Source: a bacterium
GTDB lineage: Bacteria; UBA8248
Reading direction: 5' to 3'
Length of the DNA stretch: 64,000 bases
Assembly (NCBI GenBank): GCA_965207065.1
Contig: OZ242260.1
Span: 128,001 to 192,000, forward strand
The notes beneath the pieces were generated by a model that had not been told where the DNA came from, did no database searches, and worked only from the letters and a program-made list of their open reading frames with translations. Within the stretch, counting starts at the first letter, position 1. Each line of letters starts with the position of its first letter. Below are positions 1,567 to 57,816 of the stretch, piece after piece. The translations under genes were made by a program, and so were the position numbers.

Positions 1567-3204
1567 TCAGGCGTTTTCCGGCGCAATCGAGCCGACCGGA
1601 AGGGAAGCGGCCGAAAAGGCGTCTCCCTCTTTTTTCACGAAAACGTTCACCCGCCAGCGCGCGTCGTCAGGCTCCGGATAATCGGTGCGGTAGTGCGCGC
1701 CCCGGCTCTCGGTGCGGGCGAGGGCGGCCTCGGCCACCGCCTGCGCGCTCAGGCACATGTTCTCGGCCTCGACGGCCTCCACGACACGGGCGGGCTCGCT
1801 CCCCCCGCACGCCGTCAGGCCCTGCCCGATGCGGCCGAGTTCCGCCCGCGCCTCCTCCAGCAGGCCGCCCTCGCGCACGATGCCGGCGTTCTCCCAGCAG
1901 ACGCGCTTGATCTCGCGGGCGAGCTCCACGGCCCGGCTGGGCCTGCCGGCGCGCGCCGTGAGGGCGTCTGCGTGGCGCCTGGCGAGCGCAGGATCCGCCG
2001 CCCCGTCCGCGCTGCGGGCGTATTCAGAGGCCGCCCTGGCCGCCCGCCAGCCCAGCGTGTGGGCCTCGGTGAAGGCGTTGTTCGAGAGGCGGTTCGCCCC
2101 GTGCGCGCCCGCGCTCGCCTCCCCCGCCGCGTAGAGGCCCGGCATGGCCGTCGCGCCCGCGCCGTCGATGGGCACGCCGCCCATGAAGAAATGGGCCTTC
2201 GGGGTGACGTATATCTCGCTGCTGTGGGGCGATACGCCGCGCCTGGCGAAGAGTTTGAGGTTGTCCGGGGCGAAGTGCTCAAGCTCGGCCATCGGGATGC
2301 CCGAGAGGTCCATCTGCACGGCGCCGTCCACCCCGCCGCCCCCCATGAGTTCGAGGTATACCGCCCGCGCCATCAGGTCGCGCGTGGCGCCGCCGCCGCC
2401 GGGCACGTCGCGCAGGATGTCCTCGCCGTCCCTGTTCAGGAAGCGCGCGCCGAGCGGGAACAGCGTGGGCGCCACCACCATGTTGCTCTCGGGCCGCTTG
2501 ATGACGGCCGGGTAGAACTGGACGAACTCCATGTCCGAGAGCGCGAGACCGGCCCTAAGCGCCATGCCGAAGGCGTCTCCCGTGATGCCGCCCGCGTTCG
2601 TGTTCTCGGCGTATATCTGCCCCGCCCCGCCCGTGGCCAGTATGGTGGCGGGGGCCGATATGGCGTAAATCCGGCCGGTTCTCGTGTGAAAGCCGACCAC
2701 CCCCCGGCAGACCCCCTCCTCCACGAGCAAATCGACCGCCATGACGTTTTCGAGAATGCGCGCGCCGTCCGCATCGAGCTTCCTGCGCAGCGGCCGCGCC
2801 ACCTCCACGCCCCAGTTCCGGACCGGGTAGACCCCGCGGTCGCGCCTGTGGCCGCCCTGGGGGTGCAGGTCGAAGGCGCCGTCCTCGCGCGTGATGAAGG
2901 GGATGCCCCAGTCGTACAGATCGCGTATCCGCGCGGCGGAATCCGCGCACATGGCGTCGGCGACATCGGGGTGATTCAGGTGATCGCCGCCCTCCAGGGT
3001 GTCTTCCAGGAACAGGGCCGCGCTGTCGTCGGGCGCGAAATTGGCCGAATGCCCCGCGCGGGCCATGACGATGTTGCCCGAGTTTCCGGGGGACTGCTTG
3101 CAGACCAGGAGCGCATCCGAACCGCTCTCCATGGCGGCGATTGTGGCCGTCATCGCGGCGGGGCCGCCGCCCAGAACTACTACGTCGCAGGAGAGGTTTT
3201 CCAT
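1567..3204 (-). CDS. FAD-dependent oxidoreductase, succinate dehydrogenase/fumarate reductase flavoprotein / L-aspartate oxidase family
   Basis: VVVLGGGPAA, ILATGGAG, MEFVQFYP, HFFMGG, AGEASAGAHGANRL, RTESRGAHYRTDYP. Confidence 0.9.
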   Translation of the reverse strand: MENLSCDVVVLGGGPAAMTATIAAMESGSDALLVCKQSPGNSGNIVMARAGHSANFAPDDSAALFLEDTLEGGDHLNHPDVADAMCADSAARIRDLYDWGIPFITREDGAFDLHPQGGHRRDRGVYPVRNWGVEVARPLRRKLDADGARILENVMAVDLLVEEGVCRGVVGFHTRTGRIYAISAPATILATGGAGQIYAENTNAGGITGDAFGMALRAGLALSDMEFVQFYPAVIKRPESNMVVAPTLFPLGARFLNRDGEDILRDVPGGGGATRDLMARAVYLELMGGGGVDGAVQMDLSGIPMAELEHFAPDNLKLFARRGVSPHSSEIYVTPKAHFFMGGVPIDGAGATAMPGLYAAGEASAGAHGANRLSNNAFTEAHTLGWRAARAASEYARSADGAADPALARRHADALTARAGRPSRAVELAREIKRVCWENAGIVREGGLLEEARAELGRIGQGLTACGGSEPARVVEAVEAENMCLSAQAVAEAALARTESRGAHYRTDYPEPDDARWRVNVFVKKEGDAFSAASLPVGSIAPENA

Positions 3205-3239
3205 GAGTCACCCGGGGATATCAGCGAGTTTGCGAGAAT

Positions 3240-5522
3240 TCAAGAGGTATTCTGATTCCTGGCTTCTTCTATGGCCTCGAGGACGCGCTCGGGGCTGACG
3301 GGCAGGGTGCGTATCCGCGCGCCGCCCGTCGCGTGATAGACGGCGTTGCAGATCGCCGCCGTGATCGGGTTGATGGCCACCTCGGCCAGCCCCTTCGCGC
3401 CATAGGGGCCGTAGGGGTCCATGGACTCGAAGAAATCGTGCTCTATCGGCGGGGCGTCCATCGAGGTGGCGATGAGGTAGTCGTGGAAATTCCTGCCGCG
3501 CAGATGGCCTTCCTGCGGCGCCAGCCCCTCCATCATCGCGAAGCTCATGCCCTGCACCACGCCGCCCTCGACCTGGCCCTCAGCGCCCAGCCTGTTGATC
3601 ACCCGGCCGGGGTCGTGGCCGCAGCAAACCTGCAAGACGGTGACGAGGCCCGTCTCCATGTCCACTTCCACCTCGGCGCCATGGGTGCTGAAGGAATACG
3701 TGGTCGAGGGATTCCCGTATTTTTCCTTGTCGAGCACGTCTCCCCCGGCCAGCCACTTGCCCTCGCCCTCGATCACGCTCCCCGCACGGCTGACGACCTC
3801 GCCCACCGTCATCTTCCGCTCAGGCAGCGCCTTCGCCCGGATATCTCCCTCGACGATTTCGAGCTCATCCGCCGGGATCTCCATGAATTCCGCCGCCGCG
3901 TCCAGGAGGTTCCTGCGCGCGTCTTCGGCAGCGATTTTGACGGCGTTGCCGCCAATCAGGGTGATCCGGCTCGCGAACGCCCCCATGCCGAAAGGCATGT
4001 AGCCCGTATCCGTGGGGGGGACCTTGAACCGCTCGACCGGAATACCCATGACCTCGGAGGCGATGTAGGCCATCACGCTCGTGGCCCCCTGGCCCAGGTC
4101 CGACTCGCCCGACCATATCTCGACCTTGCCCTCCTCATCCACGCGAACCACGCCGCTCGAGGGGTCGGTGTCATCGGGCCCCAATTCCACGGAAAACCCT
4201 TTATTCCCGGAAACATGGATGCAACTGGCGAGACCCACGCCGCGGCCCTCCCCGCCCCGGGCGCGCTTGGCTTTCCAGTCCATCTCCCTGACAACGTGCC
4301 TGGTGGCGTCCGCCACGGCACAACTGGCGATTTTCCAGCCGTGGAGCGAGACGTCGCCCTTTTCGGTGTAGTTCTTGAGGCGGAGATCGGCCGGGTCCAG
4401 GCCCAGGCCATCGGCCACGTTGTCGAGGTGGCTCTCCCAGGCGTATGTCGCCTGCACGTTGCCGAACCCCCGCATCTGGCCCGAGGGGATGATGTTCGTG
4501 TAGACGAGCTTGCCCTGAATCTCGGCGGCGGGCGTCTTGTAGAGATTATCCGTCCTGAGGGCTATCGAACTCATGATGGCCGGCGAGAGCGAGCTGTAGG
4601 CCCCGTTTTCCGCCACGATCCTGACGCGCTTGCCCGCGAGGGTGCCGTCACGCTTCCAGGCGGACTCCAGGGAGATGTGCACCGGCATCCTGGGGCGCAT
4701 GGCGATCATGTCTTCTTCCAGGCTCATCATGAACTTGACCGGCTTTTCCGCCGCCCGGCTCAGCATCGCCGCCATGAGGGCCGCTTTCACGTCGAGCTTG
4801 CCGCCGAAGGCGCCGCCCGGCTTGGTCTGCGTCACGCGGAAATCATCGGGGGAAATGCCCATGACGGGCCCCAGCATGAAGGTGCGAATCAAAAAAACCG
4901 ACTGCAGACAGCCCCAGACGGAAATTTTCCCGTCAGGATGCCACTGCGCCGCGCAACCCGTGGGTTCGATATAAGCCTGGTGCGCGAGATGGGTGTGAAA
5001 TTCATCGGCAAAAGTAGCGTCCGCCGCATGAAACGCCTCGTCTATCCCGACGCGCTTGATGTGAAACTCGTTCGCGATGTTGCCGGCGACGGAATCGTGG
5101 ACGAGAGGCGCATCCGGCTCCTGCGCCATGAAAGTATCCGCGACCGTGGGCAGAACCTCATATTCGACGCGGATGAGCGAAAGCGCCTCACGGGCCGTTT
5201 CTTCATCAACGGCCGCCACGGCGGCTACTTCATCTCCCACGTAACGCACTTTTTCGCGGCAAAACGCGGCTTCATCCTTGTGATTGATGCCGAAGGGCGC
5301 ATCCGGCGTGTTGTTTTTCGACAGAACGACGGCGACGCCCGGCAGACGCTCGGCGTACGTAGTGTCGAGATTCAATAACCGGGCATGCGGATGGGGGCTC
5401 CTGAGCGCCATGCCCGTGAGCGCGCCCGGAAGCTCCAGATCGTTGATGAACACCGTGGCGCCCGAGACTTTCTCCACGGCATCGATGATGGGATGCGGCT
5501 GGCCGACGACGCGCGTGCTCAT
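3240..5522 (-). CDS. xanthine dehydrogenase family molybdopterin-binding subunit
   Basis: RSPHPHAR, KVRYVGDEVAAV, GGAFGGK, MRGFG, DLGQG, EGQVEGG, GAKGLAE. Confidence 0.92.
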   Translation of the reverse strand: MSTRVVGQPHPIIDAVEKVSGATVFINDLELPGALTGMALRSPHPHARLLNLDTTYAERLPGVAVVLSKNNTPDAPFGINHKDEAAFCREKVRYVGDEVAAVAAVDEETAREALSLIRVEYEVLPTVADTFMAQEPDAPLVHDSVAGNIANEFHIKRVGIDEAFHAADATFADEFHTHLAHQAYIEPTGCAAQWHPDGKISVWGCLQSVFLIRTFMLGPVMGISPDDFRVTQTKPGGAFGGKLDVKAALMAAMLSRAAEKPVKFMMSLEEDMIAMRPRMPVHISLESAWKRDGTLAGKRVRIVAENGAYSSLSPAIMSSIALRTDNLYKTPAAEIQGKLVYTNIIPSGQMRGFGNVQATYAWESHLDNVADGLGLDPADLRLKNYTEKGDVSLHGWKIASCAVADATRHVVREMDWKAKRARGGEGRGVGLASCIHVSGNKGFSVELGPDDTDPSSGVVRVDEEGKVEIWSGESDLGQGATSVMAYIASEVMGIPVERFKVPPTDTGYMPFGMGAFASRITLIGGNAVKIAAEDARRNLLDAAAEFMEIPADELEIVEGDIRAKALPERKMTVGEVVSRAGSVIEGEGKWLAGGDVLDKEKYGNPSTTYSFSTHGAEVEVDMETGLVTVLQVCCGHDPGRVINRLGAEGQVEGGVVQGMSFAMMEGLAPQEGHLRGRNFHDYLIATSMDAPPIEHDFFESMDPYGPYGAKGLAEVAINPITAAICNAVYHATGGARIRTLPVSPERVLEAIEEARNQNTS

Positions 5523-6001
5523 GAGTCGTCTCCTTCATTCATCTGCCGGGCAGCGGCCGATACCGCCTCGAAAATCTTTTTGTAACCCGTGCAGCGGCAA
5601 AGATTTCCGGCGAGGCCGCGCTGTATATCTTCGCGCGAGGGCGCAGCGTTCTCATCCAACAGCGCCTTCGCCGATACCACTACTCCCGGCGTGCAGAAGC
5701 CGCACTGCACGCCTCCTTTTTCGATGAGCTGCTCCTGAACCGGATGGAGATCGTCTTCCGTTCCGACCCCGCGCACGGTGGTGACTTCGGAGCCATCCGC
5801 CTGAGCGGCGAACATGAGACAGGCGTTCACGGCCACGCCGTCTAGCAGAATGGCGCACGCGCCGCAATCGCCCCCCTCGCAACTGAGTTTCACCTCGACA
5901 TAGCCGATTCGCCTGAGCGCGCGCAGGAGCGTCTCATCCCCCCGCACTTCGAGGGTTTCGTCCTTCCCGTTCACACGCATATTGATCTCGTATGTATTCA
6001 T
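5519..6001 (-). CDS. (2Fe-2S)-binding subunit (CoxS/CutS-like)
   Basis: CEGGDCGAC, QCGFCTPG, GNLCRCTGY; stop overlaps next start; start approximate. Confidence 0.93.
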   Translation of the reverse strand: MNTYEINMRVNGKDETLEVRGDETLLRALRRIGYVEVKLSCEGGDCGACAILLDGVAVNACLMFAAQADGSEVTTVRGVGTEDDLHPVQEQLIEKGGVQCGFCTPGVVVSAKALLDENAAPSREDIQRGLAGNLCRCTGYKKIFEAVSAAARQMNEGDDS

Positions 6002-6031
6002 CGTCTTCTCAAGCAAAATATTAAATTCTCA

Positions 6032-6886
6032 TCACACGACCACAGCTTCAGGCATTCCCATCGCTTTCCTCAACATGCGGCGGACCAGTACGCCGCACAT
6101 TTTCCGGCGGTACGACGCACTCGCCCGCACGTCGTCAATCGGCTGTGCGCTATCCGCTGCGGCGGCTGCCGCCGACTCGATTTCCGCTTCCCCGATTTCC
6201 TTGCCGCGTAGATGCGCCTCCGCGTCGTGCGCACGATACGGGATCGCGGCCACCGCTCCCAGACCGATAGCGGCCTCCGCGCAAACGCCTCCATTCATCC
6301 GGAGAACGACCGCCACACCCACGACGGCGATGGCCATCGCGCGCCTGAGCTGGAGTTTGTAATATGCGCTACGATCCTCCGCCCCCAGCGGATCAATGAC
6401 GATGGCTGTCACGAGTTCTTCCGGACGCACAGCCGTTTTTCGGTAATCCAGAAAAAATTCCGAAAGCGGCAAGGCGCGCTCGCCCTCCACCGAAACCAAT
6501 TCGACGATGGCATCCTGCACCAGCAGAGGTGGAGCCAAATCGGCGGCGGGCGAGGCATCCATAAGGTTGCCCGCTACGCTCGCGCGGTTTCTCACCAAAG
6601 GACCCGCGAACTCAAGAGCGCTCTCATGCAAAGGCGAGGCTGCTGTGCAAATCAAGTCAGAATCCAGCAAATCCGTGACCGTCGCCAGCGCACCGATTCT
6701 GATTTTTCCGTCCGCCTCTTTGATGTAGCGAAGCTCATCCAGGCGGCTGATGTCCACCGCGCGCGCAATTTTCTTGCGCCCGAAGAGCACGTCCGGCACG
6801 AGGTTCGTGCCGCCCGCCACGAATGCGGCGCCATCGCGCGCAGCCGCCAATGCCTCATCCACCGATGCAGCGCGTAAAAATTCCAT
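6032..6886 (-). CDS. FAD-binding subunit of xanthine dehydrogenase family (CoxM-like)
   Basis: AGGTNL, VRNRASVAGN, DASPAAD, PIDDVRASASYRR. Confidence 0.92.
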   Translation of the reverse strand: MEFLRAASVDEALAAARDGAAFVAGGTNLVPDVLFGRKKIARAVDISRLDELRYIKEADGKIRIGALATVTDLLDSDLICTAASPLHESALEFAGPLVRNRASVAGNLMDASPAADLAPPLLVQDAIVELVSVEGERALPLSEFFLDYRKTAVRPEELVTAIVIDPLGAEDRSAYYKLQLRRAMAIAVVGVAVVLRMNGGVCAEAAIGLGAVAAIPYRAHDAEAHLRGKEIGEAEIESAAAAAADSAQPIDDVRASASYRRKMCGVLVRRMLRKAMGMPEAVVV

Positions 6887-6961: not shown

Positions 6962-7759
6962 TCACGGCCTGATGTCGGACTCAATCTGCATCCCCGTCGC
7001 CAGGGAGTTGAAGCTGTTGTAGTGGTCCACCACCCCGAGAATTTCGAGGATTCGCCCCGGACTCCAGCCCAGTTTCACCAGATAAGTATGAAAATACCGT
7101 ATGAAATACCTGGACCCGTTCGTGGCGCTCACGCCGTAGCCCACGGCCGCTTTGGCCCCTTTTTCGAGAACGCCTCCATCGAGCATGAGCTTGTGTTTGT
7201 TCCACGTGGATTCGAAATAATGCCGGTTCCGCGCCAGGCAGCGCCAATAGCGCGGAACACCGTCTACACCCAGACGCGCCGATTCGACCTCCGCCACCTC
7301 GTGCATCAGCTCCTGAACGACAGGTGTGATCTCCAGTTCATCTGGATAAGGCAGAAGGGGAGGCGTATCCTCATCCTCCAGCAACAGACCGAAAGCGACC
7401 TTGTTCATCCCCGATACATGATCCGTCAGCCCGATCAATTCCGTGATGCCCACCTCATCAACCCCCATCCGCATGACCGCGGCGATGTGAGAGTCGATTC
7501 AGTAATCACACGCATTGACGATGGAAACCGCCGAGGCGACCATCTCCTTGACCAGAGGCGGCACGTCTCCACGCTGCATCGTGGCGCGCGAACGCTCCCA
7601 ATTGGCCTTCATGTATTCGGGATGATGGGTCATGGAGCGCCAGATGTTCGAGAGCGTATCGATGCCGAACACGCGCTTCTCGCGCGTCTTGACGCGCTCG
7701 ACAAGCTCGCGAGCCGCCTTGGGCACCTCGTTGTCGGCCAACTGGTGAATCGTCGGCAT
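6962..7759 (-). CDS. AhpD/carboxymuconolactone-decarboxylase-family selenoprotein, two CMD repeats, CxxU (about 265 aa, UGA at 7499-7501)
   Basis: ORFs 7499..7798 and 6962..7474 share a frame and are separated only by TGA plus 8 sense codons: ...VNACDY-TGA-IDSHIAAVMRMG, matching the AhpD CxxC-x3-H motif; ATG at 7759 has GAGG upstream. Confidence 0.82.
7457..7498 (-). promoter_or_regulatory. putative bacterial SECIS element
   Basis: Directly after UGA: AUCGAC/GUUGAU, UCU/GGG, CAU/AUG and CCGC/GCGG stems with apical GGUCAU starting 21 nt after UGA. Confidence 0.65.
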
Positions 7760-7781
7760 CAAAACCCTCAAAACGCCAGAC

Positions 7782-7815
7782 CAGGAGCGCCGCCTCAACC
7801 AAGGCGGCGCTCCTG
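7782..7815 (-). promoter_or_regulatory. intergenic stem-loop after the solute-binding protein gene (mRNA stabiliser or partial terminator)
   Basis: Perfect 14-bp stem CAGGAGCGCCGCCT/AGGCGGCGCTCCTG with a 6-nt loop; no immediate U-tract. Confidence 0.5.
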
Positions 7816-7837: not shown

Positions 7838-9046
7838 CTATCTCGGATACCTGAACTTCGCGTTCGCCACGCTCTTCGGTCCCACCGTCTTGCGTTTTCC
7901 GTCCTGCACCTGGAACAAAACGATGGCGCTGGCCGCGTTCATGTTGAGCTTGTCGAACTTCACGGGGCCGAAGAAAGTTTTCAAGTTGGTATTCGCAATG
8001 GCGTCGCGAACTTTTTTCTTATCCAGCGTGCCCGCCGCCTCGATGGCCTTCTGGGCGACGATGCCCGCAGCCGTCGACGCCGCAGCGACGTAGTCCGGCT
8101 CCTGCTTGAACTTGGCGCGCCAGATTTTCCCGAAATCCCGCGCCGAGCCGATGAAACTGCCCTTGTAATCGAGCGCCTCGCCCCACCAGGCGGCGGTCAG
8201 GATGTTGTTGGCCGCGCCCTTGAGCGAATCCGTGAACTGTGCGTAGACCGGACCGACCATGGTGAACAGGATTTTGGGCTTCACTCCCAACTCGTTCGCC
8301 TGCTTGGTGGCGAGGAGGGTGTCGGGAAGATAGCCGGCTACCATGAGCACGTCGGGATTCTTGCCCTTCACGATCGTGAGCCAGGTGGACATGTCCTTGG
8401 AATCTTTCGGGAATTCAGCGTAATAGACATCCGTGAAACCCTGCTTTTTCGCCGCTTTTCTGATCATCCTCGTGACGGCGCGCGGGAAGAAGTCGTTGCG
8501 CGTCACGAACGCTATGGTCTTCGGCATCGGCTTTTGCTCTTTCAAGAGCGCAAGGAAATTGTTCGGCAAATACGCATTCGGCGCCAGAAGGCCGAAGAGG
8601 TATTTGTAGCCCTGATCGAAAATAGGCTCGGAACTCGCCACGGGCGCGATGAGAGGAACCTGATAACGCTCCGTAATCGCGGCGACTGATTTCGTCGCTC
8701 CGCTCCCGAACGGGCCCAGCAGAAGGTCCACCTTTTCCTTGGTGATGAGCCGCTCGGCGAGTTTGGTGGCCGTCGGCGTCTTGCTCTCGTAGTCATAGTA
8801 GACGATCTTCACTTTCATCTTCTTGCCGCCTACGTTGATGCCGCCCGCCTTGTTCACGCGCTCTCGCCAGATTTCATAACCCGCCTGCTGCTTTTTCCCC
8901 TCGGTGGCGAGCGGGCCCGTAAGTGGCAATGCAGCGCCGAACTTGACCTCCGCCGCCTGGGCGCCGCTTAGACCCTGTAGGCCCGTCACGCCGAAGGTGA
9001 CAAACAAGACAGTTGCGATGAGAAACAACAAATTCCGCCTTCTCAT
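7838..9046 (-). CDS. livK: branched-chain amino acid (Liv-type) ABC transporter substrate-binding protein
   Basis: Signal peptide, KFGAALPLTGPLA, VNKAGGINVGGK, LLGPFGSG; SD GAGGAGG before ATG 9046. Confidence 0.88.
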   Translation of the reverse strand: MRRRNLLFLIATVLFVTFGVTGLQGLSGAQAAEVKFGAALPLTGPLATEGKKQQAGYEIWRERVNKAGGINVGGKKMKVKIVYYDYESKTPTATKLAERLITKEKVDLLLGPFGSGATKSVAAITERYQVPLIAPVASSEPIFDQGYKYLFGLLAPNAYLPNNFLALLKEQKPMPKTIAFVTRNDFFPRAVTRMIRKAAKKQGFTDVYYAEFPKDSKDMSTWLTIVKGKNPDVLMVAGYLPDTLLATKQANELGVKPKILFTMVGPVYAQFTDSLKGAANNILTAAWWGEALDYKGSFIGSARDFGKIWRAKFKQEPDYVAAASTAAGIVAQKAIEAAGTLDKKKVRDAIANTNLKTFFGPVKFDKLNMNAASAIVLFQVQDGKRKTVGPKSVANAKFRYPR

Positions 9047-9143
9047 GATTCGCCTCCTCATTAAGTGAATGCTACCTCTTGCGTTCTCAAGTTCTCCACG
9101 ATTTTCATGCATTTTGATTCCAGGCAGAGTATATGAAAAGAAG

Positions 9144-9884
9144 CTACATGCCCAGATACGCTTTTTTCACTTGCGGGTTCGCCAGCAATTCATCCGAGGT
9201 GCCGGAGATCGTCACACGCCCCGTCTCGAATACATAGGCCCGGCTCGCGAGTTCGAATGCGGTCAGCACGTCCTGTTCCACGAGGATGATGGCGACGCCC
9301 TCCTCGTTTATCTGCCGGACGAAGCCACACAACTCCTCCACCAGACGGGGCGCTAGCCCCAGGGAGAGTTCATCGATCAAGAGCAACCTGGGACGCGCCA
9401 TCAATCCCCGGGCAATCGCGCACATCTGCTGCTCACCGCCGGACATACTCCCCGCAAGCTGGGATTTCCGCTCCGCCAATCTCGGGAAAAACCCGTACAC
9501 CCTCTCCAAATCCGCCGCCAGTTCCTGATCCGCCATTTTCCGGGCATAAGCGCCCATTAAAAGATTCTCCTCCACGCTCATCGCGGCGAAAAGACGGCGG
9601 CCCTCGGGCACATGGGAAATCCCTTTGGCGACGACACTTTCCGGCGCCATTCCCTCGATGGACTCACCACCGAGCGTTATCGTTCCCGCCTGATGAGGGA
9701 GAACGCCCGACAGCATTCGCAGGAAAGTGGATTTTCCAACGCCGTTGCTGCCGACGATAGCGACAATCTCGCCTTCGCGTACGTTCAAATCAATGCCCCA
9801 CAAAACCTGCACGACATCATACCCACCCGCCAAGCCGCGTACTTCGAGAAGGCTCTCCCCGCTGTGCGATTCATGCGTCATCAC
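9144..9884 (-). CDS. livF: Liv-type ABC transporter ATP-binding protein
   Basis: GSNGVGKS, VPEGRRLF, MSGGEQQM, IDELSLGLAP. Confidence 0.9.
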   Translation of the reverse strand: MMTHESHSGESLLEVRGLAGGYDVVQVLWGIDLNVREGEIVAIVGSNGVGKSTFLRMLSGVLPHQAGTITLGGESIEGMAPESVVAKGISHVPEGRRLFAAMSVEENLLMGAYARKMADQELAADLERVYGFFPRLAERKSQLAGSMSGGEQQMCAIARGLMARPRLLLIDELSLGLAPRLVEELCGFVRQINEEGVAIILVEQDVLTAFELASRAYVFETGRVTISGTSDELLANPQVKKAYLGM

Positions 9885-9886
9885 GC

Positions 9887-10654
9887 CTAAGACTCCTCGG
9901 CCAGTTTTTTCATCATCGCCACGTACTTCTCGCCCAGATACGCCTTGATGACCTGCTCGTCGCTCGTGACCTCGCTCGGTAAACCTTCCGCTATCTTCTC
10001 CCCGTGGTGCAGAACGACGACGCGGTCCGAGAGGTCCGTAATCACCTTCATCAAATGCTCGATCACCAAGATGGTCACGCCTTGTTCCCTCACCTTGTGG
10101 ATGAGCGAGATGGCGTTCTCGATCTCCGTCGTGTTGAGCCCTGCATTCACCTCATCAAGCAGCAACACCTCGGGTTCCGTGGCGAGGGACTTTGCAAATT
10201 CCAGGCGTTTTCTCTCGGCGAGCGTAAGCTGGGAGGCGAGTTGCGCGGCCTTATCGCTCAGCCCTACGAAGTCCAGCATTTCATCCGCGAGTTCCTGGGC
10301 GCGCTTCACCTCCTTCTTCGATTTCTGGGAGCCGAACAACGCGCCCATCACCACGTTCTCGCGCACCGCAAGGCCCGCAAAAGGCTGGACTATCTGAAAC
10401 GTCCGTGCGACTCCCATTCGCGTGATGGAGTGGGGTTTCAAGGTTTCGATGCGCTCGCCGTGAAAGAGAATTTCGCCTTCGTTTGCCGGGTCGAGGCCCG
10501 TGATGCAATTCAGAAGCGTCGTCTTACCCGCTCCGTTGGGGCCGATGACGCCCAGGATCTCCCCCTTGCGCACGGTGAAATCCACCGCCGAGACGGCGGT
10601 GAGTCCGCCGAAACGCTTCGTGACGCCCCTGCCCTCTAACAGTGTTTCGCTCAC
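9887..10654 (-). CDS. livG: Liv-type ABC transporter ATP-binding protein
   Basis: KRFGGL, GPNGAGKTT, ARTFQ, LLDEVNAGL; GTG start overlaps the livM stop. Confidence 0.9.
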   Translation of the reverse strand: MSETLLEGRGVTKRFGGLTAVSAVDFTVRKGEILGVIGPNGAGKTTLLNCITGLDPANEGEILFHGERIETLKPHSITRMGVARTFQIVQPFAGLAVRENVVMGALFGSQKSKKEVKRAQELADEMLDFVGLSDKAAQLASQLTLAERKRLEFAKSLATEPEVLLLDEVNAGLNTTEIENAISLIHKVREQGVTILVIEHLMKVITDLSDRVVVLHHGEKIAEGLPSEVTSDEQVIKAYLGEKYVAMMKKLAEES

Positions 10655-11643
10655 ACCTTGAACCTTTGTATGTTGCTCTTGAGAATCAGCCCCAAAGACC
10701 CCCATCCACGGCTCTTCACCTCCTGGGAGAGGGTCATGAGGCCGCGCGGAATGAACAATACGACCAGCACAATGATGATTCCCAAGAACGCGCTGTGGAA
10801 TTCCGTGAACGCCCCCCAGAGGTAATCCGACAGGTATTCCATCATCACCGCGCCTACAAGCGGGCCCATCACCGTTCCCACTCCGCCAAGCATCGACATC
10901 ACGATCGCCTTGATCGAGAACATGACGTCGAAAACATCGATTGGCTCCAGAAACGCGGCGCGATACGCGTACACGCCGCCGCCCATCGCGGGGAAAATGG
11001 ATGACAGCACGAAGGCGATGATCTTGTATTTCGTCGTATCCACGCCCGTCATGGCGGCCGCGTCCTCGTTCTCCCGAATAGCAACGAGTCCATAGCCCAG
11101 GCGGTGTCGTGTGACGAAGTACTGCGTCAAGACTGCCAACACGGCCACCCCGAGCATGGAGAAGTAGAAAAAGCGCGTAAAATAATCCGGCCCGCCCGTA
11201 ATCTGGGGAAGGTTGATGCCGTCCCCTCCGCCGGTGATGCGCAGATTATCCGCCAGTTCACGGAAGAATTCCGCTACACCGAAGGTGGCGATGGCGAAGT
11301 AGTGGCCCCTCAACCTCAATATGGGAACGCCCAGCGCGAGCGCCACGAGAGCGCCCAAACAGGCGCCGATCCCCAGCGTGATGAAGAAATTGAACCCTGC
11401 GTTCATGAGGATGGCCGTCGTGTACGCTCCAAGCCCGAAAAAAGCAGCCGGTGCGAAAGAGGGGTAGCCCGTCAAACCGCCGATGAAATTCCAACTCGTC
11501 GCCAGAATAGCCACCATCAGGATGTCCATCCACTTGCGAATCTCGTCGTTTTCCACGAAAGAGGGCAAGAGTATGAGGGCGAGGACACCCGCTCCTATGC
11601 CGAACCATTGAATGTGGGCCCAAGGCTTGAACATGCTATTCAA
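10651..11643 (-). CDS. livM: Liv-type ABC transporter permease
   Basis: SWNFIGGLTGYPSF, LRLRGHYFAIAT, AIRENEDAA. Confidence 0.9.
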   Translation of the reverse strand: MNSMFKPWAHIQWFGIGAGVLALILLPSFVENDEIRKWMDILMVAILATSWNFIGGLTGYPSFAPAAFFGLGAYTTAILMNAGFNFFITLGIGACLGALVALALGVPILRLRGHYFAIATFGVAEFFRELADNLRITGGGDGINLPQITGGPDYFTRFFYFSMLGVAVLAVLTQYFVTRHRLGYGLVAIRENEDAAAMTGVDTTKYKIIAFVLSSIFPAMGGGVYAYRAAFLEPIDVFDVMFSIKAIVMSMLGGVGTVMGPLVGAVMMEYLSDYLWGAFTEFHSAFLGIIIVLVVLFIPRGLMTLSQEVKSRGWGSLGLILKSNIQRFKV

Positions 11644-12502
11644 ACCCCTTTCTGCCCAGCAAGCCCGATGGCTTGATGAAGAGCACCAGAATCAAGAGCA
11701 CATAGCCGATGGCGTTTTGCAGCCCGGGACCTAGATACAAAGCGCCAAAATTCTCGGCGAGTCCCAGGATCAGCCCCCCCGCCAGCGCACCCGTGATGTT
11801 TCCGAGTCCTCCGATGGTGCAAATGATGAAGGATTTCGAAAGAAACTCCACGTCGCTCACCGGCGATATGGCGAAACCAACGCTCACCAGGGACCCCGAC
11901 GTGGCCGCGGCGGCCGCGCCGATTCCATAAGTGATGGCGTAGATTCTTCCGATGTCGACGCCCATCAGCTGGGCGGAGTCCAAGTCCATCCGCGTCGCGC
12001 GTATGGCCCGGCCCGTGCGCGTGTGCCCCATAAACCAGAAGAGAATACTCGTGAGAACGACACCCAGCACGAAAATGGAAACTCGGACGAACGGTATCGA
12101 AAGACCCATGAGGGGAATGGAAAAACCCGCATAGGAGGGCTGAACCGACCTGAAATCGCCGGTGAAGAAATAAATCGCCAGCCTCACGACGAGCAATTGA
12201 AGGCCGAAGGTGAGAATCAAGGACATGAACATGGGCGCGCGAACGATTTTGTTGATCAGTCCGCGCTGCACAATATAACCGGCGCAGAACATGGTGACGG
12301 CGGAAACAGGAAGAGATAAAAACGGATCCACGCCGTAGAGCTTGAACATCCAAAACGTAACGTAGCCGCCCAGCATTAAAAACGTGCCGTGCATAATGTT
12401 GAGGATGTTCATGACGCCCCAGACGAGCGAGAAGCCGACTGCGATGCAGGCGTATATGCCTCCGAGGAGAATGCTGTTAATCAGAATCTGGGCGTAAACC
12501 AT
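11636..12502 (-). CDS. livH: Liv-type ABC transporter permease
   Basis: GGIYACIAVGFSLVWG, TRTGRAIRA, GGLGNITGA. Confidence 0.9.
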   Translation of the reverse strand: MVYAQILINSILLGGIYACIAVGFSLVWGVMNILNIMHGTFLMLGGYVTFWMFKLYGVDPFLSLPVSAVTMFCAGYIVQRGLINKIVRAPMFMSLILTFGLQLLVVRLAIYFFTGDFRSVQPSYAGFSIPLMGLSIPFVRVSIFVLGVVLTSILFWFMGHTRTGRAIRATRMDLDSAQLMGVDIGRIYAITYGIGAAAAATSGSLVSVGFAISPVSDVEFLSKSFIICTIGGLGNITGALAGGLILGLAENFGALYLGPGLQNAIGYVLLILVLFIKPSGLLGRKGFE

Positions 12503-12523: not shown

Positions 12524-13579
12524 CTAGGTGATGATTTCCCATTCGCTCGAATACCGATCGAGTTGCGCCGCGCTGTATGGGTCCACGTGATGATCGCGTT
12601 CGGGAATATCGACGTGCTTCTCTTCCCCGCACAAGGCGGTGGTGAAATAGCGCTGTCCCGTGTCGTTGATGTTCGTGACGATGCTGGCGAGCTCGGGATG
12701 CCTTCTGGCCAGCTTGATGGCCGCCGCCACGTTGCAGCCCGAGGAGATGCCGCAAAATATCCCCTCCTCGCGCGCGAGGCGCTGCGCCATTTCAACCGAC
12801 TCATCCGTCGTCGTCGTCACGATGCCCGTGAGTTGCGACAGGTCGAGCGCCTTGGGCACGAAGCCGTCCCCGATGCCTTCGATGCCGTGCGGTCCCCAGC
12901 CCCGCTGGCTCAGGAGCGGACATTCCTGAGGCTCCACGGCGTAGAGCCTCACGTCCGGGTTGTCTTCGCGCAGGAATTTCCCCACGCCGCTCACCCAACC
13001 ACCCGTCCCCTGCGACGCCACGACTGCGTCTACGCGCCCATCCAACTGCTCGAAAATTTCTGGCCCTGTCGTGAGATAATGCGCCTCATTGTTGTCGAGA
13101 TTGTCGAACTGGGCGGGTACCCAGTATTTCTCGGGCGTAGCCGCGCGGATTTCTTCGAGTTTATCGAGCGCGAGATCGACGTCGCTCTCTCCTCCCGGTG
13201 TAAACACCAAATCGGCCCCGTAGGCGCGCATGAGTTTTTTTCGCTCATCGCTCATGCCCTCGGGCATGACGACGATACAGGAGTAACCCTTCACCGCGGC
13301 TACGAACGAACAGGCGATGCCTGCGTTGCCGGTGGAGCATTCGAGCACCGTCATGCCGGCTTTCAAGTCGCCGCGTTCCTCTGCGTTCAGGATCATGTTG
13401 TAGTAGATACGATCCTTGAGGCTCCCCGATGGCGAGTACCACTCGAGCTTCGCGTAGATTTCGGGCTCCACGTCCGCCGCCACCTTGTTCAGGCGGACCA
13501 GAGGCGTACCCCCGATGGCGTCGAAAATGTTTTCGGAATAGCGTCTGTAAGAATCCCAGGCTCTTTTTTGGATGCCCAT
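12524..13579 (-). CDS. PLP-dependent cysteine synthase family protein (paralog 2)
   Basis: IGGTPLVRL, GSLKDR (PLP Lys), STGNAGI, GTGG, IEGIG, GISSG. Confidence 0.9.
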   Translation of the reverse strand: MGIQKRAWDSYRRYSENIFDAIGGTPLVRLNKVAADVEPEIYAKLEWYSPSGSLKDRIYYNMILNAEERGDLKAGMTVLECSTGNAGIACSFVAAVKGYSCIVVMPEGMSDERKKLMRAYGADLVFTPGGESDVDLALDKLEEIRAATPEKYWVPAQFDNLDNNEAHYLTTGPEIFEQLDGRVDAVVASQGTGGWVSGVGKFLREDNPDVRLYAVEPQECPLLSQRGWGPHGIEGIGDGFVPKALDLSQLTGIVTTTTDESVEMAQRLAREEGIFCGISSGCNVAAAIKLARRHPELASIVTNINDTGQRYFTTALCGEEKHVDIPERDHHVDPYSAAQLDRYSSEWEIIT

Positions 13580-13610
13580 CCTTTACACCTTGAAAAGAGG
13601 AGAAAAAACC

Positions 13611-14663
13611 TTATTCGATGATCTCCCATGAAGTTCTGAATTTCTGGAGCATCATCTCCCTGTCTCCTTCGACGACGTCCTGCAGCGCCGCCTCCATGCC
13701 CGATTCGTCATGACAAAGCGGGGTGGAGAAGTAGCGCTGCCCCGAATCCCCGAATATGGTGACGATTCGACCAGTTTCTGGATAGGAGCGCGCGAACTTC
13801 ACCGCCGCCGCCAGGTTACAGCCCGAAGATATCCCGCAGAAAAGGCCCTCCTCGCGCGAGGCACGCCTCGCCATGCGGAGCGACTCTTCGGTCGAGGCGG
13901 TGATGATGCCGTCGATGATGGACAAATCCAGGATGTTGGGAATCAGTCCGTCGCCGATTCCCGCGATACCGTGGCCGCAGCAAATCCCTTCGCTGATCAG
14001 GGGCGATTCCGTCGGCTCCACGCCGTAAATCTTGAGCTTGGGGTTTTTCTCCCTCAAAAACCGCCCTACTCCTGTGAGCCAGCCGCCCGTCCCTACCGCA
14101 GCGATGAGCGCATCCACGCGGCCATCCAACTGCTCCCAGATTTCTGGGCCCGAGGTGGTGTAGTGCGTATCCACGTTGTCCATATTCTCAAATTCGGCGG
14201 GCACCCAGTATCTGTCGGGGTCGCTCGCAGCCATTTCCTTCATGCGCTCTAGGGCGACGTCCACGTCGCTCTCTCCACCCGGCGTCGTAATGAGTTCGGC
14301 TCCAAAGGCGCGAATCATCTTCTTACGCTCGGGACTCATCAACTCCGGCATGACGATGATGCACGCATACCCCCTGACCGCGGCCGCCGCGGCGCAGGCG
14401 ATGCCCGCATTGCCGGATGAGCACTCCAGAATCACCTTGCCTGGGGTCAGCTCCCCCCTCGCCTCTGCGCGGGAAATCATCTGTTCATAGATGCGATCCT
14501 TCAAGCTTCCCGTGGGGGAATACCATTCGATTTTGGCGAAAATCTCAGGCGCAAGCCCCTGTGAGATTCGTCCCAGCCTCACCAGCGGTGTATAACCCAC
14601 GGCGTCGAAAATCGTCTCCGAGACCGAAGCCAGGCTATCCCATGCTATCGATGTCACTTGCAT
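13611..14663 (-). CDS. PLP-dependent cysteine synthase family protein (paralog 1)
   Basis: VGYTPLVRL, GSLKDR, SSGNAGI, GTGG, DSGQRYFST. Confidence 0.9.
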   Translation of the reverse strand: MQVTSIAWDSLASVSETIFDAVGYTPLVRLGRISQGLAPEIFAKIEWYSPTGSLKDRIYEQMISRAEARGELTPGKVILECSSGNAGIACAAAAAVRGYACIIVMPELMSPERKKMIRAFGAELITTPGGESDVDVALERMKEMAASDPDRYWVPAEFENMDNVDTHYTTSGPEIWEQLDGRVDALIAAVGTGGWLTGVGRFLREKNPKLKIYGVEPTESPLISEGICCGHGIAGIGDGLIPNILDLSIIDGIITASTEESLRMARRASREEGLFCGISSGCNLAAAVKFARSYPETGRIVTIFGDSGQRYFSTPLCHDESGMEAALQDVVEGDREMMLQKFRTSWEIIE

Positions 14664-14701
14664 CTTTCTGCTCCCGTGAGGCGGCGCGTTATTTTCTTAT
14701 C

Positions 14702-15658
14702 TTAACCCGCTCTCAAACGAGGGATGATTTCTTTCGCCACGATTTCCACCTGCTCCATCTGGTATTTGTAGGGAACGAAAATGAGCCGGTCGACCCCGGT
14801 GTCGATGTGGGCCTGGAGTTGCGCAACGCACTCATCGACATTCCCCATGACGGCGCTATTGGCCGTGGACTCGCTCCAGGAGGCGTAGTCCCACTCCGTG
14901 TGGAGCCATTCGTTCATCGGCTCCTCGATGTCCGCGCGCGAATCGCCCACCATGATGGGAAGCTGATTTGTGCTCTCAAGCGCGGCGGGATCGCGCCCTG
15001 CCTCTTCCGCGAAGCGGAGAACTTTATTCCAGGATTCCGTAAAACTCTCTGGCGTATAAAAGTAAGTGAGCCAGCCGTCGCCCTTCTCTCCGGCGCGCTT
15101 GAGTACGCGGTCGACGTAGCCCCCGATGAGAATGCTCGGCCTCGGGCTCTGCACCGGCTTGGGGAACATGACGGAATTTCTGAGATTGTACTGGCCATAT
15201 TCGGCGCGCACCATATCCTCGGCCCACAGTCTCGTGATGATCTCGATGTTCTGATCCATGATGTTGCCGCGTTTCTCGAAAGGAACGCCCACCGCGTCGA
15301 ACTCGCGCTTGTACCAGCCCGACGCCATACCGACGATGAGGCGGCCGTTCGAAATCTGATCGATGCTCGATAATTGCTTCGCTACGACGAGCGGGTTCCT
15401 GAGCGGCAGGACGAGCACGCCCGTGCCGAGCTTGATTTTGCTCGTCCGAGCGGCTACCGCCGTCAGAAGCGTCAACGACTCGATGATGGGAAAGTGCGGC
15501 TCCACCCCCAGCAGAATGTGGTCCCACACCCACAGGGATTCGAAGCCCAACTCCTCCATGGCGACGCCGTATTCGATGAGCGCCTCCGCATCGGGGAGTT
15601 CTGGATACGCGGTGAAATTCCGCATGGCGATTCCGTACTTGACGTCTGTTCCTGACAT
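14702..15658 (-). CDS. LLM-class (luciferase-like) flavin/F420-dependent oxidoreductase
   Basis: GFESLWVWDH, IKLGTGVLVLPLRNP, SNGRLIVG, GDGW. Confidence 0.9.
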   Translation of the reverse strand: MSGTDVKYGIAMRNFTAYPELPDAEALIEYGVAMEELGFESLWVWDHILLGVEPHFPIIESLTLLTAVAARTSKIKLGTGVLVLPLRNPLVVAKQLSSIDQISNGRLIVGMASGWYKREFDAVGVPFEKRGNIMDQNIEIITRLWAEDMVRAEYGQYNLRNSVMFPKPVQSPRPSILIGGYVDRVLKRAGEKGDGWLTYFYTPESFTESWNKVLRFAEEAGRDPAALESTNQLPIMVGDSRADIEEPMNEWLHTEWDYASWSESTANSAVMGNVDECVAQLQAHIDTGVDRLIFVPYKYQMEQVEIVAKEIIPRLRAG

Positions 15659-15674
15659 GTCGATTCCCTCGGTC

Positions 15675-16943
15675 TTATTCCGCTCCGCACCAATCCAGAA
15701 TGGAGAGCGCCAGTGTTTTCGTCGCGTCGATCACGTCTTCCACCGCCACCCACTCGTTGTTCGCGTGCATCTGGGTGGTGGGGCCAGGGCCGAAGATCAC
15801 CGTCGGGATGCCGGCAAAACCATTCAAAAAGCGTGTGTCCGCCGCTCCCTGGCGTCCGGATATTTCAGGTGTATTGCCCGATACTTCGTGGTAAGCGCTC
15901 GCCACCGTCTTGACGATCGGGTGTTCAGCGTCCACCGCCGCCGATTCGGCGTAATACCCCACGAATCGCACCTCCGGCGGATGATCCTTCATCCAGGGAT
16001 CATCCCCTGCCGCCTGCGCCACCTGAGCGACCAGGCTCTGCTTGGCCGCATCGTGATCCTCACCCGGCACGGTGGCGAGACTCCCCTTGAGTACGCAGGT
16101 GTCTGGGAATGCGCTCGGGAAACTCCCGGCCTCCATCGAGCCGACCATGCAGGGAATCGCGTCGATGATCTTGGGATACAACGGATGGGATACCGTCTCC
16201 AGACGTTTTTTCTCGAGATCGGCCACCGCCTGAACGATCTTGTAGCCCAGGTCGATGGCGTTGACGCCCTGATATCTCCGCTGGATGCCCGCCGCCTTTC
16301 CGCGTACCAGTATCTCGAACCAGATTCTGCCGATGCAGCCGGGTTGGATGGCGTTCCCGCTCGTCTCGCAGCATATGCCCGCATCCGCCGTATAGCCGCG
16401 CAAAATGGTGTCGAGCGTGCCGTGGCCGCTCAACTCCTCATCCACGACGAAATCGAGAATCACATCGCCCTTGGGCCTGAGCCCCGCCGCCATGAAGCAT
16501 TTGGCCGCCATCATAATGGCCGCCACCCCGCTTTTCATGTCCGAAGCGCCGCGCCCGTACAGACGGCCGTCCTCGATGTCGGCGGAGAGCGGCCCATGCT
16601 CCCATGCGTCATCCGGGCCGTTGGGGACGGTATCGGTGTGGCCGTTCATCAGGAGCGACCTGCCTCCACCCGAGCCCTTGAGGACGGCGACCACGTTCGG
16701 CCTCCCCTCATAGCCCCTCGTGACGGGCACGTATTCGGGGTGTTTTTTAAGCTCCTCCCAGTCCGATTCCCAGACGTCGACTTCCAAGTTCAAATCGCGC
16801 AGGAAATCCGCGATGTAACCTTGAATCTCCTCCTCATCCCCCGTCACGCTCGGTATCTGCACGAGCTTGGCGAGCAGGGCGATTATCTCGTCCTGATGGG
16901 CGTCGACCTGGGCTAGAATTTTTTCTCTGTGCTCGGCGCTCAT
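15675..16943 (-). CDS. M20 family amidohydrolase (ArgE/DapE-like)
   Basis: LMNGHTDTV, LYGRGASDMK, VDEE, MHANNE. Confidence 0.9.
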   Translation of the reverse strand: MSAEHREKILAQVDAHQDEIIALLAKLVQIPSVTGDEEEIQGYIADFLRDLNLEVDVWESDWEELKKHPEYVPVTRGYEGRPNVVAVLKGSGGGRSLLMNGHTDTVPNGPDDAWEHGPLSADIEDGRLYGRGASDMKSGVAAIMMAAKCFMAAGLRPKGDVILDFVVDEELSGHGTLDTILRGYTADAGICCETSGNAIQPGCIGRIWFEILVRGKAAGIQRRYQGVNAIDLGYKIVQAVADLEKKRLETVSHPLYPKIIDAIPCMVGSMEAGSFPSAFPDTCVLKGSLATVPGEDHDAAKQSLVAQVAQAAGDDPWMKDHPPEVRFVGYYAESAAVDAEHPIVKTVASAYHEVSGNTPEISGRQGAADTRFLNGFAGIPTVIFGPGPTTQMHANNEWVAVEDVIDATKTLALSILDWCGAE

Positions 16944-16958
16944 GACGGCTCCATATGG

Positions 16959-17732
16959 TTATGCGGTGTAGATCTTGTCGGGATCCAGATGGCGAAGCGC
17001 GGCCAGTTCCTCTTCCGTGGGCGGCTCTGTGGTTCCCACCGATGAGTCAATGATAAGTTCGAAGCCCGTGTTCTCCTGCGCCTGCTCGGGCGTGACGCCA
17101 GGGTGCAGCGCCTCGACGCGCATCCGGCCCGTGTCGTCGTCGAACCCCAGAATCGCCAGGTCGGTGACCACTCGGTACATGCCGCCGGCTATCAGGCCCG
17201 AATCGCGCCTCGAGGTTCCGCCCCTGATATAGCCGGGACTGGTGATGAAATCCACGCTTTCCACAAAACGGCGCTTTTCCTGCGGCATCGCCACGATCAT
17301 CCTGGTGAGGCTCGAAATGTCGTTCCCCCCGCCCGTGCCGGGCAGCCGCACGGAAGGATCGTCAACGCTTCCGATGAAGGAGCTGTTCAGGTTGCCGTAC
17401 TGATCAATTTGAGCGCCTCCCATGAAGCCCACGTCCACATAGCCGCGCTGGAGCAAGAGCAGCACCTCGGTGATGCTCACCAGCATGTTCGCCTTTCGCG
17501 TACAGCGCTGCTCATTCGTGGTGGGCGGAAGCTGACCGGGCACGACGTGCGGGCCGATGGTGCCACCCTCGAAGAGAATCGTCACGCCCGGGGCATGGAG
17601 ACGCTGGGCCAGCGTGGCGGCCAAAAGCGGAATCCCCACGCCCGCGAAAACCACCTGCCCGTCTTCGAGCGCGCGGGCGCTCATGACGCACAAAAGCTCC
17701 GACGCCGTGAAATCTTTCGTCTCAGTCGTCAT
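16959..17732 (-). CDS. CoA-transferase subunit B (glutaconate/3-oxoadipate CoA-transferase-like)
   Basis: VFAGVGIP, GGAQIDQYGNLN, RLPGTGGGNDI, VDFITSPG. Confidence 0.88.
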   Translation of the reverse strand: MTTETKDFTASELLCVMSARALEDGQVVFAGVGIPLLAATLAQRLHAPGVTILFEGGTIGPHVVPGQLPPTTNEQRCTRKANMLVSITEVLLLLQRGYVDVGFMGGAQIDQYGNLNSSFIGSVDDPSVRLPGTGGGNDISSLTRMIVAMPQEKRRFVESVDFITSPGYIRGGTSRRDSGLIAGGMYRVVTDLAILGFDDDTGRMRVEALHPGVTPEQAQENTGFELIIDSSVGTTEPPTEEELAALRHLDPDKIYTA

Positions 17733-18687: not shown

Positions 18688-19001
18688 CACGTCGGGGCGG
18701 GGATTCGCCCCTCGTTCACAATGCGCTGAAACTCTCGTATCGGCAGCCGAAATAATATATGCCCCCGTTTGTAGATTAAACGGAAGGCAGCGGATTCGCA
18801 ATGGGGAAAATTTGAATCACATGTATTGAATAATTTAATGGATATCTTATATAATATTATCGCGTTTTGGAAGATCGTTTTCTTTTATCACCAGTTATTC
18901 GAAAGAAATACGAGAAAACGAGCCCGATGGGCATAGCACCGTACCATCAAAATTCATAATGAAATGAGTAGCATCACGGCAAATGTTTTCACGAGGCATT
19001 C

Positions 19002-37292: not shown

Positions 37293-37320
37293 GTCATCTC
37301 GCATCATTTGATGACATATT

Positions 37321-47132: not shown

Positions 47133-47135
47133 TGG

Positions 47136-47477: not shown

Positions 47478-47486
47478 GCCAGTCCC

Positions 47487-57814: not shown

Positions 57815-57816
57815 TC

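Follow-up and report, generated by a model that had tools for sequence, protein, structure and literature searches.

A predicted AhpD/CMD-family selenoprotein gene with an in-frame TGA at its active site in a bacterium of the lineage UBA8248

One reading frame across an in-frame TGA

We analyzed a 64,000-nucleotide stretch of bacterial DNA (contig OZ242260.1 of assembly GCA_965207065.1, positions 128,001 to 192,000; GTDB lineage UBA8248), hereafter called the window, which carries two neighboring minus-strand open reading frames (ORFs) at 7499..7798 and 6962..7474. The upstream ORF contains 86 codons if counted from the ATG at 7759, and the downstream ORF encodes 170 residues. An initial annotation, made from the sequence alone, had proposed that the two ORFs are a single frame interrupted only by TGA. 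They indeed share one common frame, and translation from ATG 7759 with TGA read as selenocysteine (Sec, U) yielded 265 residues and a terminal stop, with TGA only at codon 87 and at the end. The sequence around codon 87, N-A-C84-D-Y-U87-I-D-S-H91, contains the motif C84-D-Y-U87-I-D-S-H91 exactly as it had been described. E-x11-CxxC-x3-H is the catalytic motif of the CMD/AhpD family, and it is present in this gene with U replacing the second Cys. We consider it highly probable (roughly 0.9) that the gene encodes a Sec-containing AhpD/CMD oxidoreductase made by recoding that depends on a Sec insertion sequence (SECIS), a reading supported by the shared frame, the conserved TGA, the pairing of Sec with Cys, the constraint on the RNA and the protein fold.

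To follow the TGA codon in relatives, we scanned one genome per species with the read-through protein using tblastn and obtained 42 loci (L001-L042). According to their record titles, these come from metagenome-assembled genomes (MAGs) under five phyla, labelled Nitrospinota, Rhodospirillales, Methylomirabilota/Rokuibacteriota, Acidimicrobiaceae and Limnocylindria; a large number carry no label beyond "bacterium". The match crosses the TGA in 39 of the 42 loci, starting at query residue 1 or 2 and reaching residue 263-266. At the homologous codon, TGA was found in 41 loci, with identity down to 45%, and the 42nd (L041) ends at a contig edge there. TGC, TGT, TAA and TAG occurred at this codon in 0 of the 41 covering loci, and down to about 40% identity the close relatives yielded no intact Cys form. 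In an alignment of 26 full-length sequences, E72, C84, Y86, position 87, S90 and H91 were all invariant.

Such a distribution bears on whether the interruption is simply a defect, that is, a recent nonsense mutation or a miscalled TGC or TGT. Real damage does exist in some relatives. L018 (10001-10802) has a one-base frameshift upstream of the TGA, which is probably an assembly indel or real decay, and its binding-protein gene gave no tblastn match. A second, degenerate copy (L040, 10001-10770), on the same contig as L028 and about 14 kb from the intact copy there, keeps the TGA, while its CxY codons are deleted and its frame is broken further on. L042 (10001-10830) has TGA in frame once more, at codon 229, which encodes Ala in relatives; a mutation, an error or a second site of recoding could account for it. 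However, the same TGA recurs in 41 independent assemblies across the range of identity given above, and purifying selection acts on both sides of it. We compared nonsynonymous (pN) and synonymous (pS) change in the window and 38 loci (39 sequences; L018, L040, L041 and L042 excluded), and in the close group of 19 sequences pN/pS was 0.13 upstream of the TGA (residues 1-86) and 0.15 downstream of it (residues 96-265). The conserved TGA and the purifying selection therefore refute a pseudogene or an assembly error for practical purposes, and we assign this explanation a negligible probability.

The codons just after the TGA are also informative, because the locus could instead hold two separate genes, namely an 86-residue N-terminal CMD fragment and a 170-residue protein starting at the ATG of codon 96, whose products might assemble non-covalently. 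Gene callers annotate the locus in this way in all 120 listed database matches (described below), an ATG lies 8 codons past the TGA in 38 of 39 sequences, and the window holds no Sec machinery. Against this, codons 88-95, from the TGA to the next ATG, showed pS = 0.291 and pN = 0.0 in the 19 closest sequences and pN/pS = 0.09 over all 39. These eight codons include the invariant active-site residues S90 and H91, with Ser90 encoded by all four TCN codons and His91 by both of its codons. In L025, codon 96 is CTG instead of ATG, so a restart at this codon is not general. An untranslated spacer between two genes is thus ruled out by the selection on codons 88-95, the codon usage of Ser90 and His91, and the CTG of L025. 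A split would moreover fall inside the CxxC-x3-H motif, Cys homologues and the solved protein of Protein Data Bank (PDB) entry 2ouw run unbroken through the split point, and in the 41 loci the stop is TGA without exception, with no TAA or TAG. A pair of separate genes therefore appears very unlikely to us.

We also examined how the family is represented in protein databases. A word-indexed protein search with the read-through sequence gave 144 proteins at E <= 0.001 among 1136 candidates, 120 of which were listed. The listed matches were all 147-204 residues long, covered 46-67% of the query and always corresponded to its C-terminal part. Out of 22 listed proteins that were aligned, 17 have "MR" at their start, which corresponds to Met96 and so to the first ATG past the TGA; another one starts directly after the TGA (DSHIAAV). 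The listed entries of the family are named "hypothetical" or "CMD family protein". Because all 120 listed entries hold the C-terminal piece only, annotation misses the gene, as had been predicted.

TGA is at the same time the commonest ordinary stop in this DNA and in this family, ending 11 of 25 window genes with family matches and 30 of 40 genes of the family. The reading of codon 87 is thus context-dependent, and the genetic code is not globally changed. Other TGA-interrupted genes proposed by a script within the window, with a high GC content at third codon positions (GC3) on both sides of the TGA, turned out to be ATGA gene overlaps or shadows of opposite-strand genes.

Hairpin directly after the TGA

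The initial annotation had described the 42 nucleotides after the TGA as a stem-loop with the apex CCGC-GGUCAU-GCGG, and folding recovered this structure. The TGA and the next 42 nucleotides form a lower stem of 11 bp, topped by an asymmetric internal loop and then by the apex CCGC(G)-GUCA-(U)GCGG, with an energy of -18.3 kcal/mol (z = -2.63; 4 of 200 shuffles were as stable). A 71-nucleotide context of the hairpin gave -28.7 kcal/mol (z = -3.04).

To evaluate the conservation of the hairpin, we aligned 41 sequences (40 distinct rows) to a model of 17 pairs. The four apical pairs, CCGC/GCGG, were the same in all 40 distinct rows, and over these rows the pairs of the model formed in 84.7% of cells, against 34-45% when the partners were slid. 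The loop follows the pattern N-G-U-N-A/C-U, with GGUCAU in 25 of 41 rows, CGUGAU in 15 and GGUCCU in L025; the loop G25 and U26 are invariant. Double changes were seen in 2 of the 17 pairs, with no excess over shuffles, and the apical stem itself does not vary. Synonymous-site conservation was chosen as a measure after covariation had proved no better than shuffles. The third base is fixed in only 2 of the 47 four-fold codon columns that are conserved, Ala93 (GCC in 39/39) and Arg97 (CGG in 39/39), and both of these wobble bases sit in the apical stem. The RNA is therefore under constraint, for which the synonymous sites are stronger evidence than covariation. The apical hairpin also formed in 7 of 8 single-sequence minimum-free-energy (MFE) folds.

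These features can be compared with published ones. Bacterial SECIS elements have been described with 16-37 nucleotides between the UGA and the apical loop (PMC10778597) and with a short apical hairpin carrying an invariant loop G (PMC4607533). With a gap of 20 nucleotides, a short apical hairpin and the loop G, the predicted structure agrees with what is stated in these sources. The apex had also been likened to the GGUC of the SECIS of Escherichia coli fdhF, and this comparison held when the fdhF sequence was folded, since GGUC likewise lies at the apex of a short G/C stem in a hairpin right after the UGA. Counting the U of UGA as 1, GGUC starts at nucleotide 22 in fdhF and at nucleotide 24 here. 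The two elements differ below the apex, where the fdhF fold has a single unpaired U and the present element has a 5-nt/1-nt internal loop, and the lower stem is longer and more stable here. The versions in Methylomirabilota and Rhodospirillales have the CGUGAU loop, unlike the GGUC of fdhF. A search of positions 7380-7560 against Rfam by E-value gave a single match, mir-246 (17.7 bits; cut-off 60), and we took it as chance.

Protein family, fold and pairing of Sec with Cys

We next consider the protein itself. Residues 47-122 matched the Pfam CMD family PF02627 with 58.1 bits (cut-off 23), and TIGR00778 (ahpD_dom) scored 42.5 bits (cut-off 27.8). Three more specific models stayed below threshold: TIGR01926, peroxidase-related enzyme (38.5 bits against 81.8, residues 36-103 only); NF041238, AhpD_rel_CFYUT (24.4 against 175, a 42-residue local match); and TIGR00777, AhpD proper (23.7 against 191.95).

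The protein is internally duplicated. Residues 1-125 and 140-265 align without gaps (BLASTP E 8e-16, 24% identity over 115 residues), and at the four key positions of the motif the second repeat carries A opposite E72, S opposite C84 and F opposite both U87 and H91. The second repeat has therefore lost the active site, and its motif is erased as had been noted. The proposal of a fused pseudo-dimer with one active site likewise stood, with the motif in the first half only. Taken alone, the C-terminal half scored 12.1 bits with the Pfam CMD model in the window, below the cut-off of 23, and 28.3 and 27.0 bits in L029 and L023, respectively.

An AlphaFold2 model built from the 26 full-length sequences (profile A3) was all-helical with twelve helices, with a predicted local distance difference test score (pLDDT) of 94.0 and a predicted template modeling score (pTM) of 0.92. 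Its 19 best-ranked PDB fold matches, all with E < 1e-3, were every one of the CMD/AhpD type. The best were 2q0t (TM-score 0.69), the AhpD-core or peroxidase-related entries 2prr, 2ouw, 6k40, 2oyo, 2pfx and 3c1l, the debrominase Bmp8 and Mycobacterium tuberculosis AhpD (1knc). 2q0t, a putative gamma-carboxymuconolactone decarboxylase subunit of Burkholderia xenovorans with 258 residues, is the best whole-chain match (TM-score 0.69 normalized to the query and 0.70 to the target) and has a similar length and two-repeat build; it shares 16-17% identity, was missed by sequence search and has no Sec. The closest solved chain by sequence is 2ouw_A (E 3.2e-20, profile positions 1-125, motif NSCSYCAHSH), a Rhodospirillum rubrum "AhpD core" protein of 138 residues from structural genomics. 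It resembles the N-terminal repeat (TM-score normalized to the target 0.80, 30% identity), whereas it is a single repeat with Cys at the Sec position. The AhpD of M. tuberculosis (1knc, 1gu9) has the same helical fold (TM-score normalized to the target 0.69-0.74) and the same E-x11-CxxC-x3-H spacing. It differs in having Cys in place of Sec, in its length of 177 residues and in its marginal sequence similarity (the TIGR00777 score above), and its partner, the AhpC/lipoamide system, was not seen in this window.

To determine what occupies position 87 in more distant homologues, we searched profile A3 against 1.84 billion cluster representatives and obtained 1838 matches at E <= 0.001. The best 150 of these were realigned to the profile, and 83 spanned position 87, with 77 Cys, 3 Ser, 1 Phe, 1 Gly and 1 Asn. 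TGA in 41 of 41 covering loci is thus matched by Cys in 77 of 83 spanning distant homologues among the best 150, which is the pairing that the initial annotation had suggested looking for; all the sequence-based tests it named came out in favor. The homologues include full-length two-repeat Cys forms of 253-276 residues with 22-33% identity and motifs such as NGCPYCITSH and NGCEYCIRAH. Because the two-repeat build is common to Cys homologues and solved CMD proteins, it is not special to this gene. Among the same best 150 representatives, 57 begin only downstream of the site and 10 stop immediately ahead of it, several at exactly 86 residues; the active-site half thus gets annotated as a separate 86-residue ORF.

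Selenoproteins of this general kind have been described before, as the initial annotation had stated. AhpD-like or CMD-domain CxxU proteins were reported from the Sargasso Sea in 2005 (PMC1088965) and as "AhpD-like 1/2" from the Global Ocean Sampling data in 2008, where they are given among the most abundant marine selenoprotein families (PMC2398784). They share with the present protein the AhpD/CMD domain, a CxxC motif whose second Cys is replaced by Sec, a hairpin of the SECIS type right after the UGA, widespread Cys homologues and a gene usually missed by annotation. The present protein differs in its greater length (265 residues), its clear internal duplication and the apparent lack of an intact Cys form among close relatives. 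A 2026 review assigns "AhpD-like" selenoproteins to TIGR01926 (PMC13188914), a family for which this protein is sub-threshold. NF041238 is likewise an AhpD-related family with CxxU, and the weak, short match to it indicates a different family. In the available parts of the literature on such selenoproteins, the BSepDB tables and supplements lying outside the search, we found no description of this two-repeat subfamily or of its operon, which is weak evidence of absence.

Gene neighborhood, Sec machinery and proposed function

Positions of the gene, its parts and the surrounding genes are collected in Table 1.

Table 1. The predicted selenoprotein gene, its elements and its neighbors in the window (ABC, ATP-binding cassette; PLP, pyridoxal phosphate; LLM, luciferase-like monooxygenase; FAD, flavin adenine dinucleotide; Mo, molybdenum).
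Feature	Position	Strand	Basis
Full predicted selenoprotein gene	6962..7759	-	265 codons and terminal TGA (6962-6964); ATG 7757-7759
Shine-Dalgarno-like GAGGG, 5 nt before the ATG	7765..7769	-	Read from the sequence
N-terminal AhpD/CMD repeat, residues 1-125, catalytic	7385..7759	-	PF02627, TIGR00778, 2ouw_A
E72, 12 residues before C84 (E-x11-CxxU-x3-H)	7544..7546	-	Invariant in alignment
Active-site motif C84-x-Y86-U87-x-x-S90-H91	7487..7510	-	Invariant positions in alignment
In-frame TGA, codon 87, putatively read as Sec	7499..7501	-	Conserved codon; Cys in distant homologues
SECIS-like hairpin, 42 nt, directly after the TGA, codons 88-101	7457..7498	-	Folding and pairing across relatives
Apical hairpin G-CCGC-GGUCAU-GCGG-A; G and U of the loop invariant	7468..7483	-	Invariant pairs, frozen wobble bases
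Acidic, proline-rich linker, residues 126-139	7343..7384	-	Variable length and sequence; no helix in model at 125-145
C-terminal degenerate CMD repeat, residues 140-265, motif lost	6965..7342	-	BLASTP against N-terminal half
Liv/Urt-type ABC transporter: binding protein (7838-9112), two ATPases, two permeases	7838..12502	-	Upstream of gene
Two CysK-like PLP enzymes, LLM-class oxidoreductase, M20 deacylase	12524..16943	-	Upstream of the transporter genes
Mo-hydroxylase FAD, Fe-S and Mo subunits and FrdA/aspartate-oxidase-like flavoprotein	1567..6886	-	Downstream genes

The placement of the gene in a Mo-hydroxylase/cysteine-synthase operon, also proposed in the initial annotation, was borne out by the three-subunit Mo-hydroxylase downstream and the two CysK-like genes upstream. 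On the minus strand, the order is M20 deacylase, LLM oxidoreductase, the two CysK-like genes, the ABC permeases, ATPases and binding protein, the selenoprotein gene, the FAD, Fe-S and Mo subunits of the Mo-hydroxylase, and the flavoprotein. This arrangement is kept, where contigs allow, in 23 of the 42 loci (L001-L022 and L027). The CysK-like genes are two tandem paralogues in the window (12524-14663), and only one is present in L002, L008, L010, L014 and L019. L023 and L024 keep the ABC transporter alone, in a different order; in L030, L033 and L034, genes for Liv-type ATPases lie no more than 1.5 kb away; and the remaining loci share none of these neighbors, so the link with the Mo-hydroxylase is specific to one lineage. 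A connection to selenium-dependent Mo-hydroxylases was considered and rejected as evidence, because the matches to TIGR03311, TIGR03313, the YgeY family and the Se-linked LysR family were far below their cut-offs and weaker than matches to ordinary xanthine dehydrogenase (XDH), M20 and LysR families.

The gap between the binding-protein gene, which stops at 7838, and the selenoprotein gene, which starts at 7759, contains a perfect 14-nucleotide inverted repeat with a 6-nucleotide loop (7782-7815). It was not flagged by the terminator scan and may be an intercistronic stabilizer or attenuator.

Elsewhere in the window, positions 34535-39330 encode two large proteins with caspase-like domains of the EACC1-associated type, one of them with an OmpA-like peptidoglycan-binding part, in a region with lower GC3 than the operon. 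At 46194-48735, an IS1595-family transposase adjoins an apparently split adenine DNA-methyltransferase with an HNH/IscB-like piece. An operon of overlapping minus-strand genes at 56619-62863 encodes Liv-type binding-protein-like, HflK-like and HflC-like proteins and a 941-residue protein, whose first half matches the SO_0444 family of Cu/Zn efflux transporters and whose second half matches HflK.

A tRNA scan detected tRNA-Sec in 1 of the 42 loci, the Rhodospirillales MAG L023. There, tRNA-Sec, selB and selA stand in a row (15686-19219) directly after the ABC-transporter genes of the homologue and 5-9 kb from the homologue itself; selB scored 420 bits with TIGR00475 (cut-off 242) and selA 582 bits with TIGR00474 (cut-off 268). 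The lineages of relatives have also been reported as rich in selenoproteins. BSepDB includes three MAGs labelled Nitrospinota, Nitrospinaceae or Nitrospinae with 48-54 selenoprotein genes (PMC13326102), and the 2026 review gives one Methylomirabilota MAG with 63 (PMC13188914).

These data bear on a further explanation, in which hairpin-stimulated near-cognate suppression places Cys, Trp or another standard residue, and not Sec, at the UGA. Sequence alone does not tell the inserted residue, and Sec machinery was not seen in the window. However, the site pairs with a catalytic Cys, as in known Sec/Cys families, the hairpin fits a SelB-type SECIS in distance and loop G, and selA, selB and selC adjoin the homologue in L023. 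The selenoprotein-rich lineages of the relatives (PMC13326102) argue in the same direction, and a Cys codon is one mutation away, yet it was found in 0 of 41 loci. Readthrough with a standard residue is thus improbable, and we give it only a few chances in a hundred.

Several observations nevertheless weigh against a Sec-containing oxidoreductase made by SECIS-dependent recoding. No tRNA gene was found in the 64-kb window, hence no tRNA-Sec, and a search over the scanned ORFs returned no selA, selB or selD. At the RNA level, the MFE fold of L030 lacks the apical hairpin, the lower stem is poorly conserved outside the Nitrospinota-like group, the covariation score was reached by 133 of 500 shuffles and the percentage paired by 236 of 500, and the RNAalifold consensus contains 10 pairs only, comprising the apical stem and a few others, with a covariation term of -0.14. 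Rfam gave 0 matches at gathering score over the whole window. A 75-residue fragment resembling the Methylomirabilota type, P0177, carries Cys at this position (NACTYCIDSHV), and its sequence becomes divergent shortly afterwards; either conversion of Sec to Cys or decay of a copy may explain it. Finally, the proposed peroxidase or reductase chemistry and the role in the operon come from family and context only.

If the gene does encode a selenoprotein, its expression and function might be as follows. The UGA at codon 87 would be decoded as Sec: SelB with Sec-tRNA(Sec) would bind the hairpin right after the UGA, whose apical loop with the G and U lies 20 nucleotides downstream, and hand Sec to the ribosome, so that reading would continue through codons 88-265. 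The product would be an internally duplicated CMD helical fold that keeps the E-x11-C-x-x-U-x3-H site in its first repeat only. The nucleophile of M. tuberculosis AhpD is the second Cys of CxxC, which is activated through a relay of Glu, His and water; Sec87 falls exactly at the position of this Cys. Sec87 would accordingly be predicted to attack a peroxide, sulfenic acid or disulfide substrate, Cys84 might resolve the adduct as a selenenylsulfide, and a thiol reductant could recycle the Sec87/Cys84 pair. The insertion of Sec, the chemistry and the physiological substrate are predictions made from the gene and its family. In this lineage, the gene would be a constant member of an operon that encodes many flavin and Mo oxidoreductases, where its most likely role may be the removal of peroxide or the re-reduction of a partner.

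A more specific and rather unlikely possibility is that these genes form a distinct two-repeat AhpD/CMD clade, apparently Sec-dependent, which has spread together with its SECIS over five phyla and, in the Nitrospinota-like group, has become fixed in a 14-gene operon for import and oxidation, acting there as a pathway-specific selenol reductase and not as a general antioxidant. Such an enzyme might reductively remove halogen, peroxide or persulfide from an imported substrate or from the Mo and flavin enzymes; the CMD-fold debrominase Bmp8, one of the fold matches, would have a similar chemistry under this possibility.

Because AhpD-like CxxU selenoproteins have been known since 2005, this gene adds a member to a known kind of selenoprotein, and the finding leaves knowledge of selenoprotein biology unchanged. 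What stands out is the apparent lack of intact Cys forms among close relatives, the spread with a SECIS across phyla, the uniform mis-annotation and the conserved operon. An annotation error is corrected, in that the listed entries are C-terminal pieces and the active-site half is called as an 86-residue ORF. The full gene would add one selenoprotein to lineages already reported as selenoprotein-rich, and it offers a clean example of a conserved peptide, AAVMR, whose coding sequence contains a predicted SECIS and is co-constrained by it. It also flags a conserved operon that combines an ABC importer, two CysK-like enzymes, an LLM oxidoreductase, an M20 deacylase, a Mo-hydroxylase and a flavoprotein with the putative selenoprotein.

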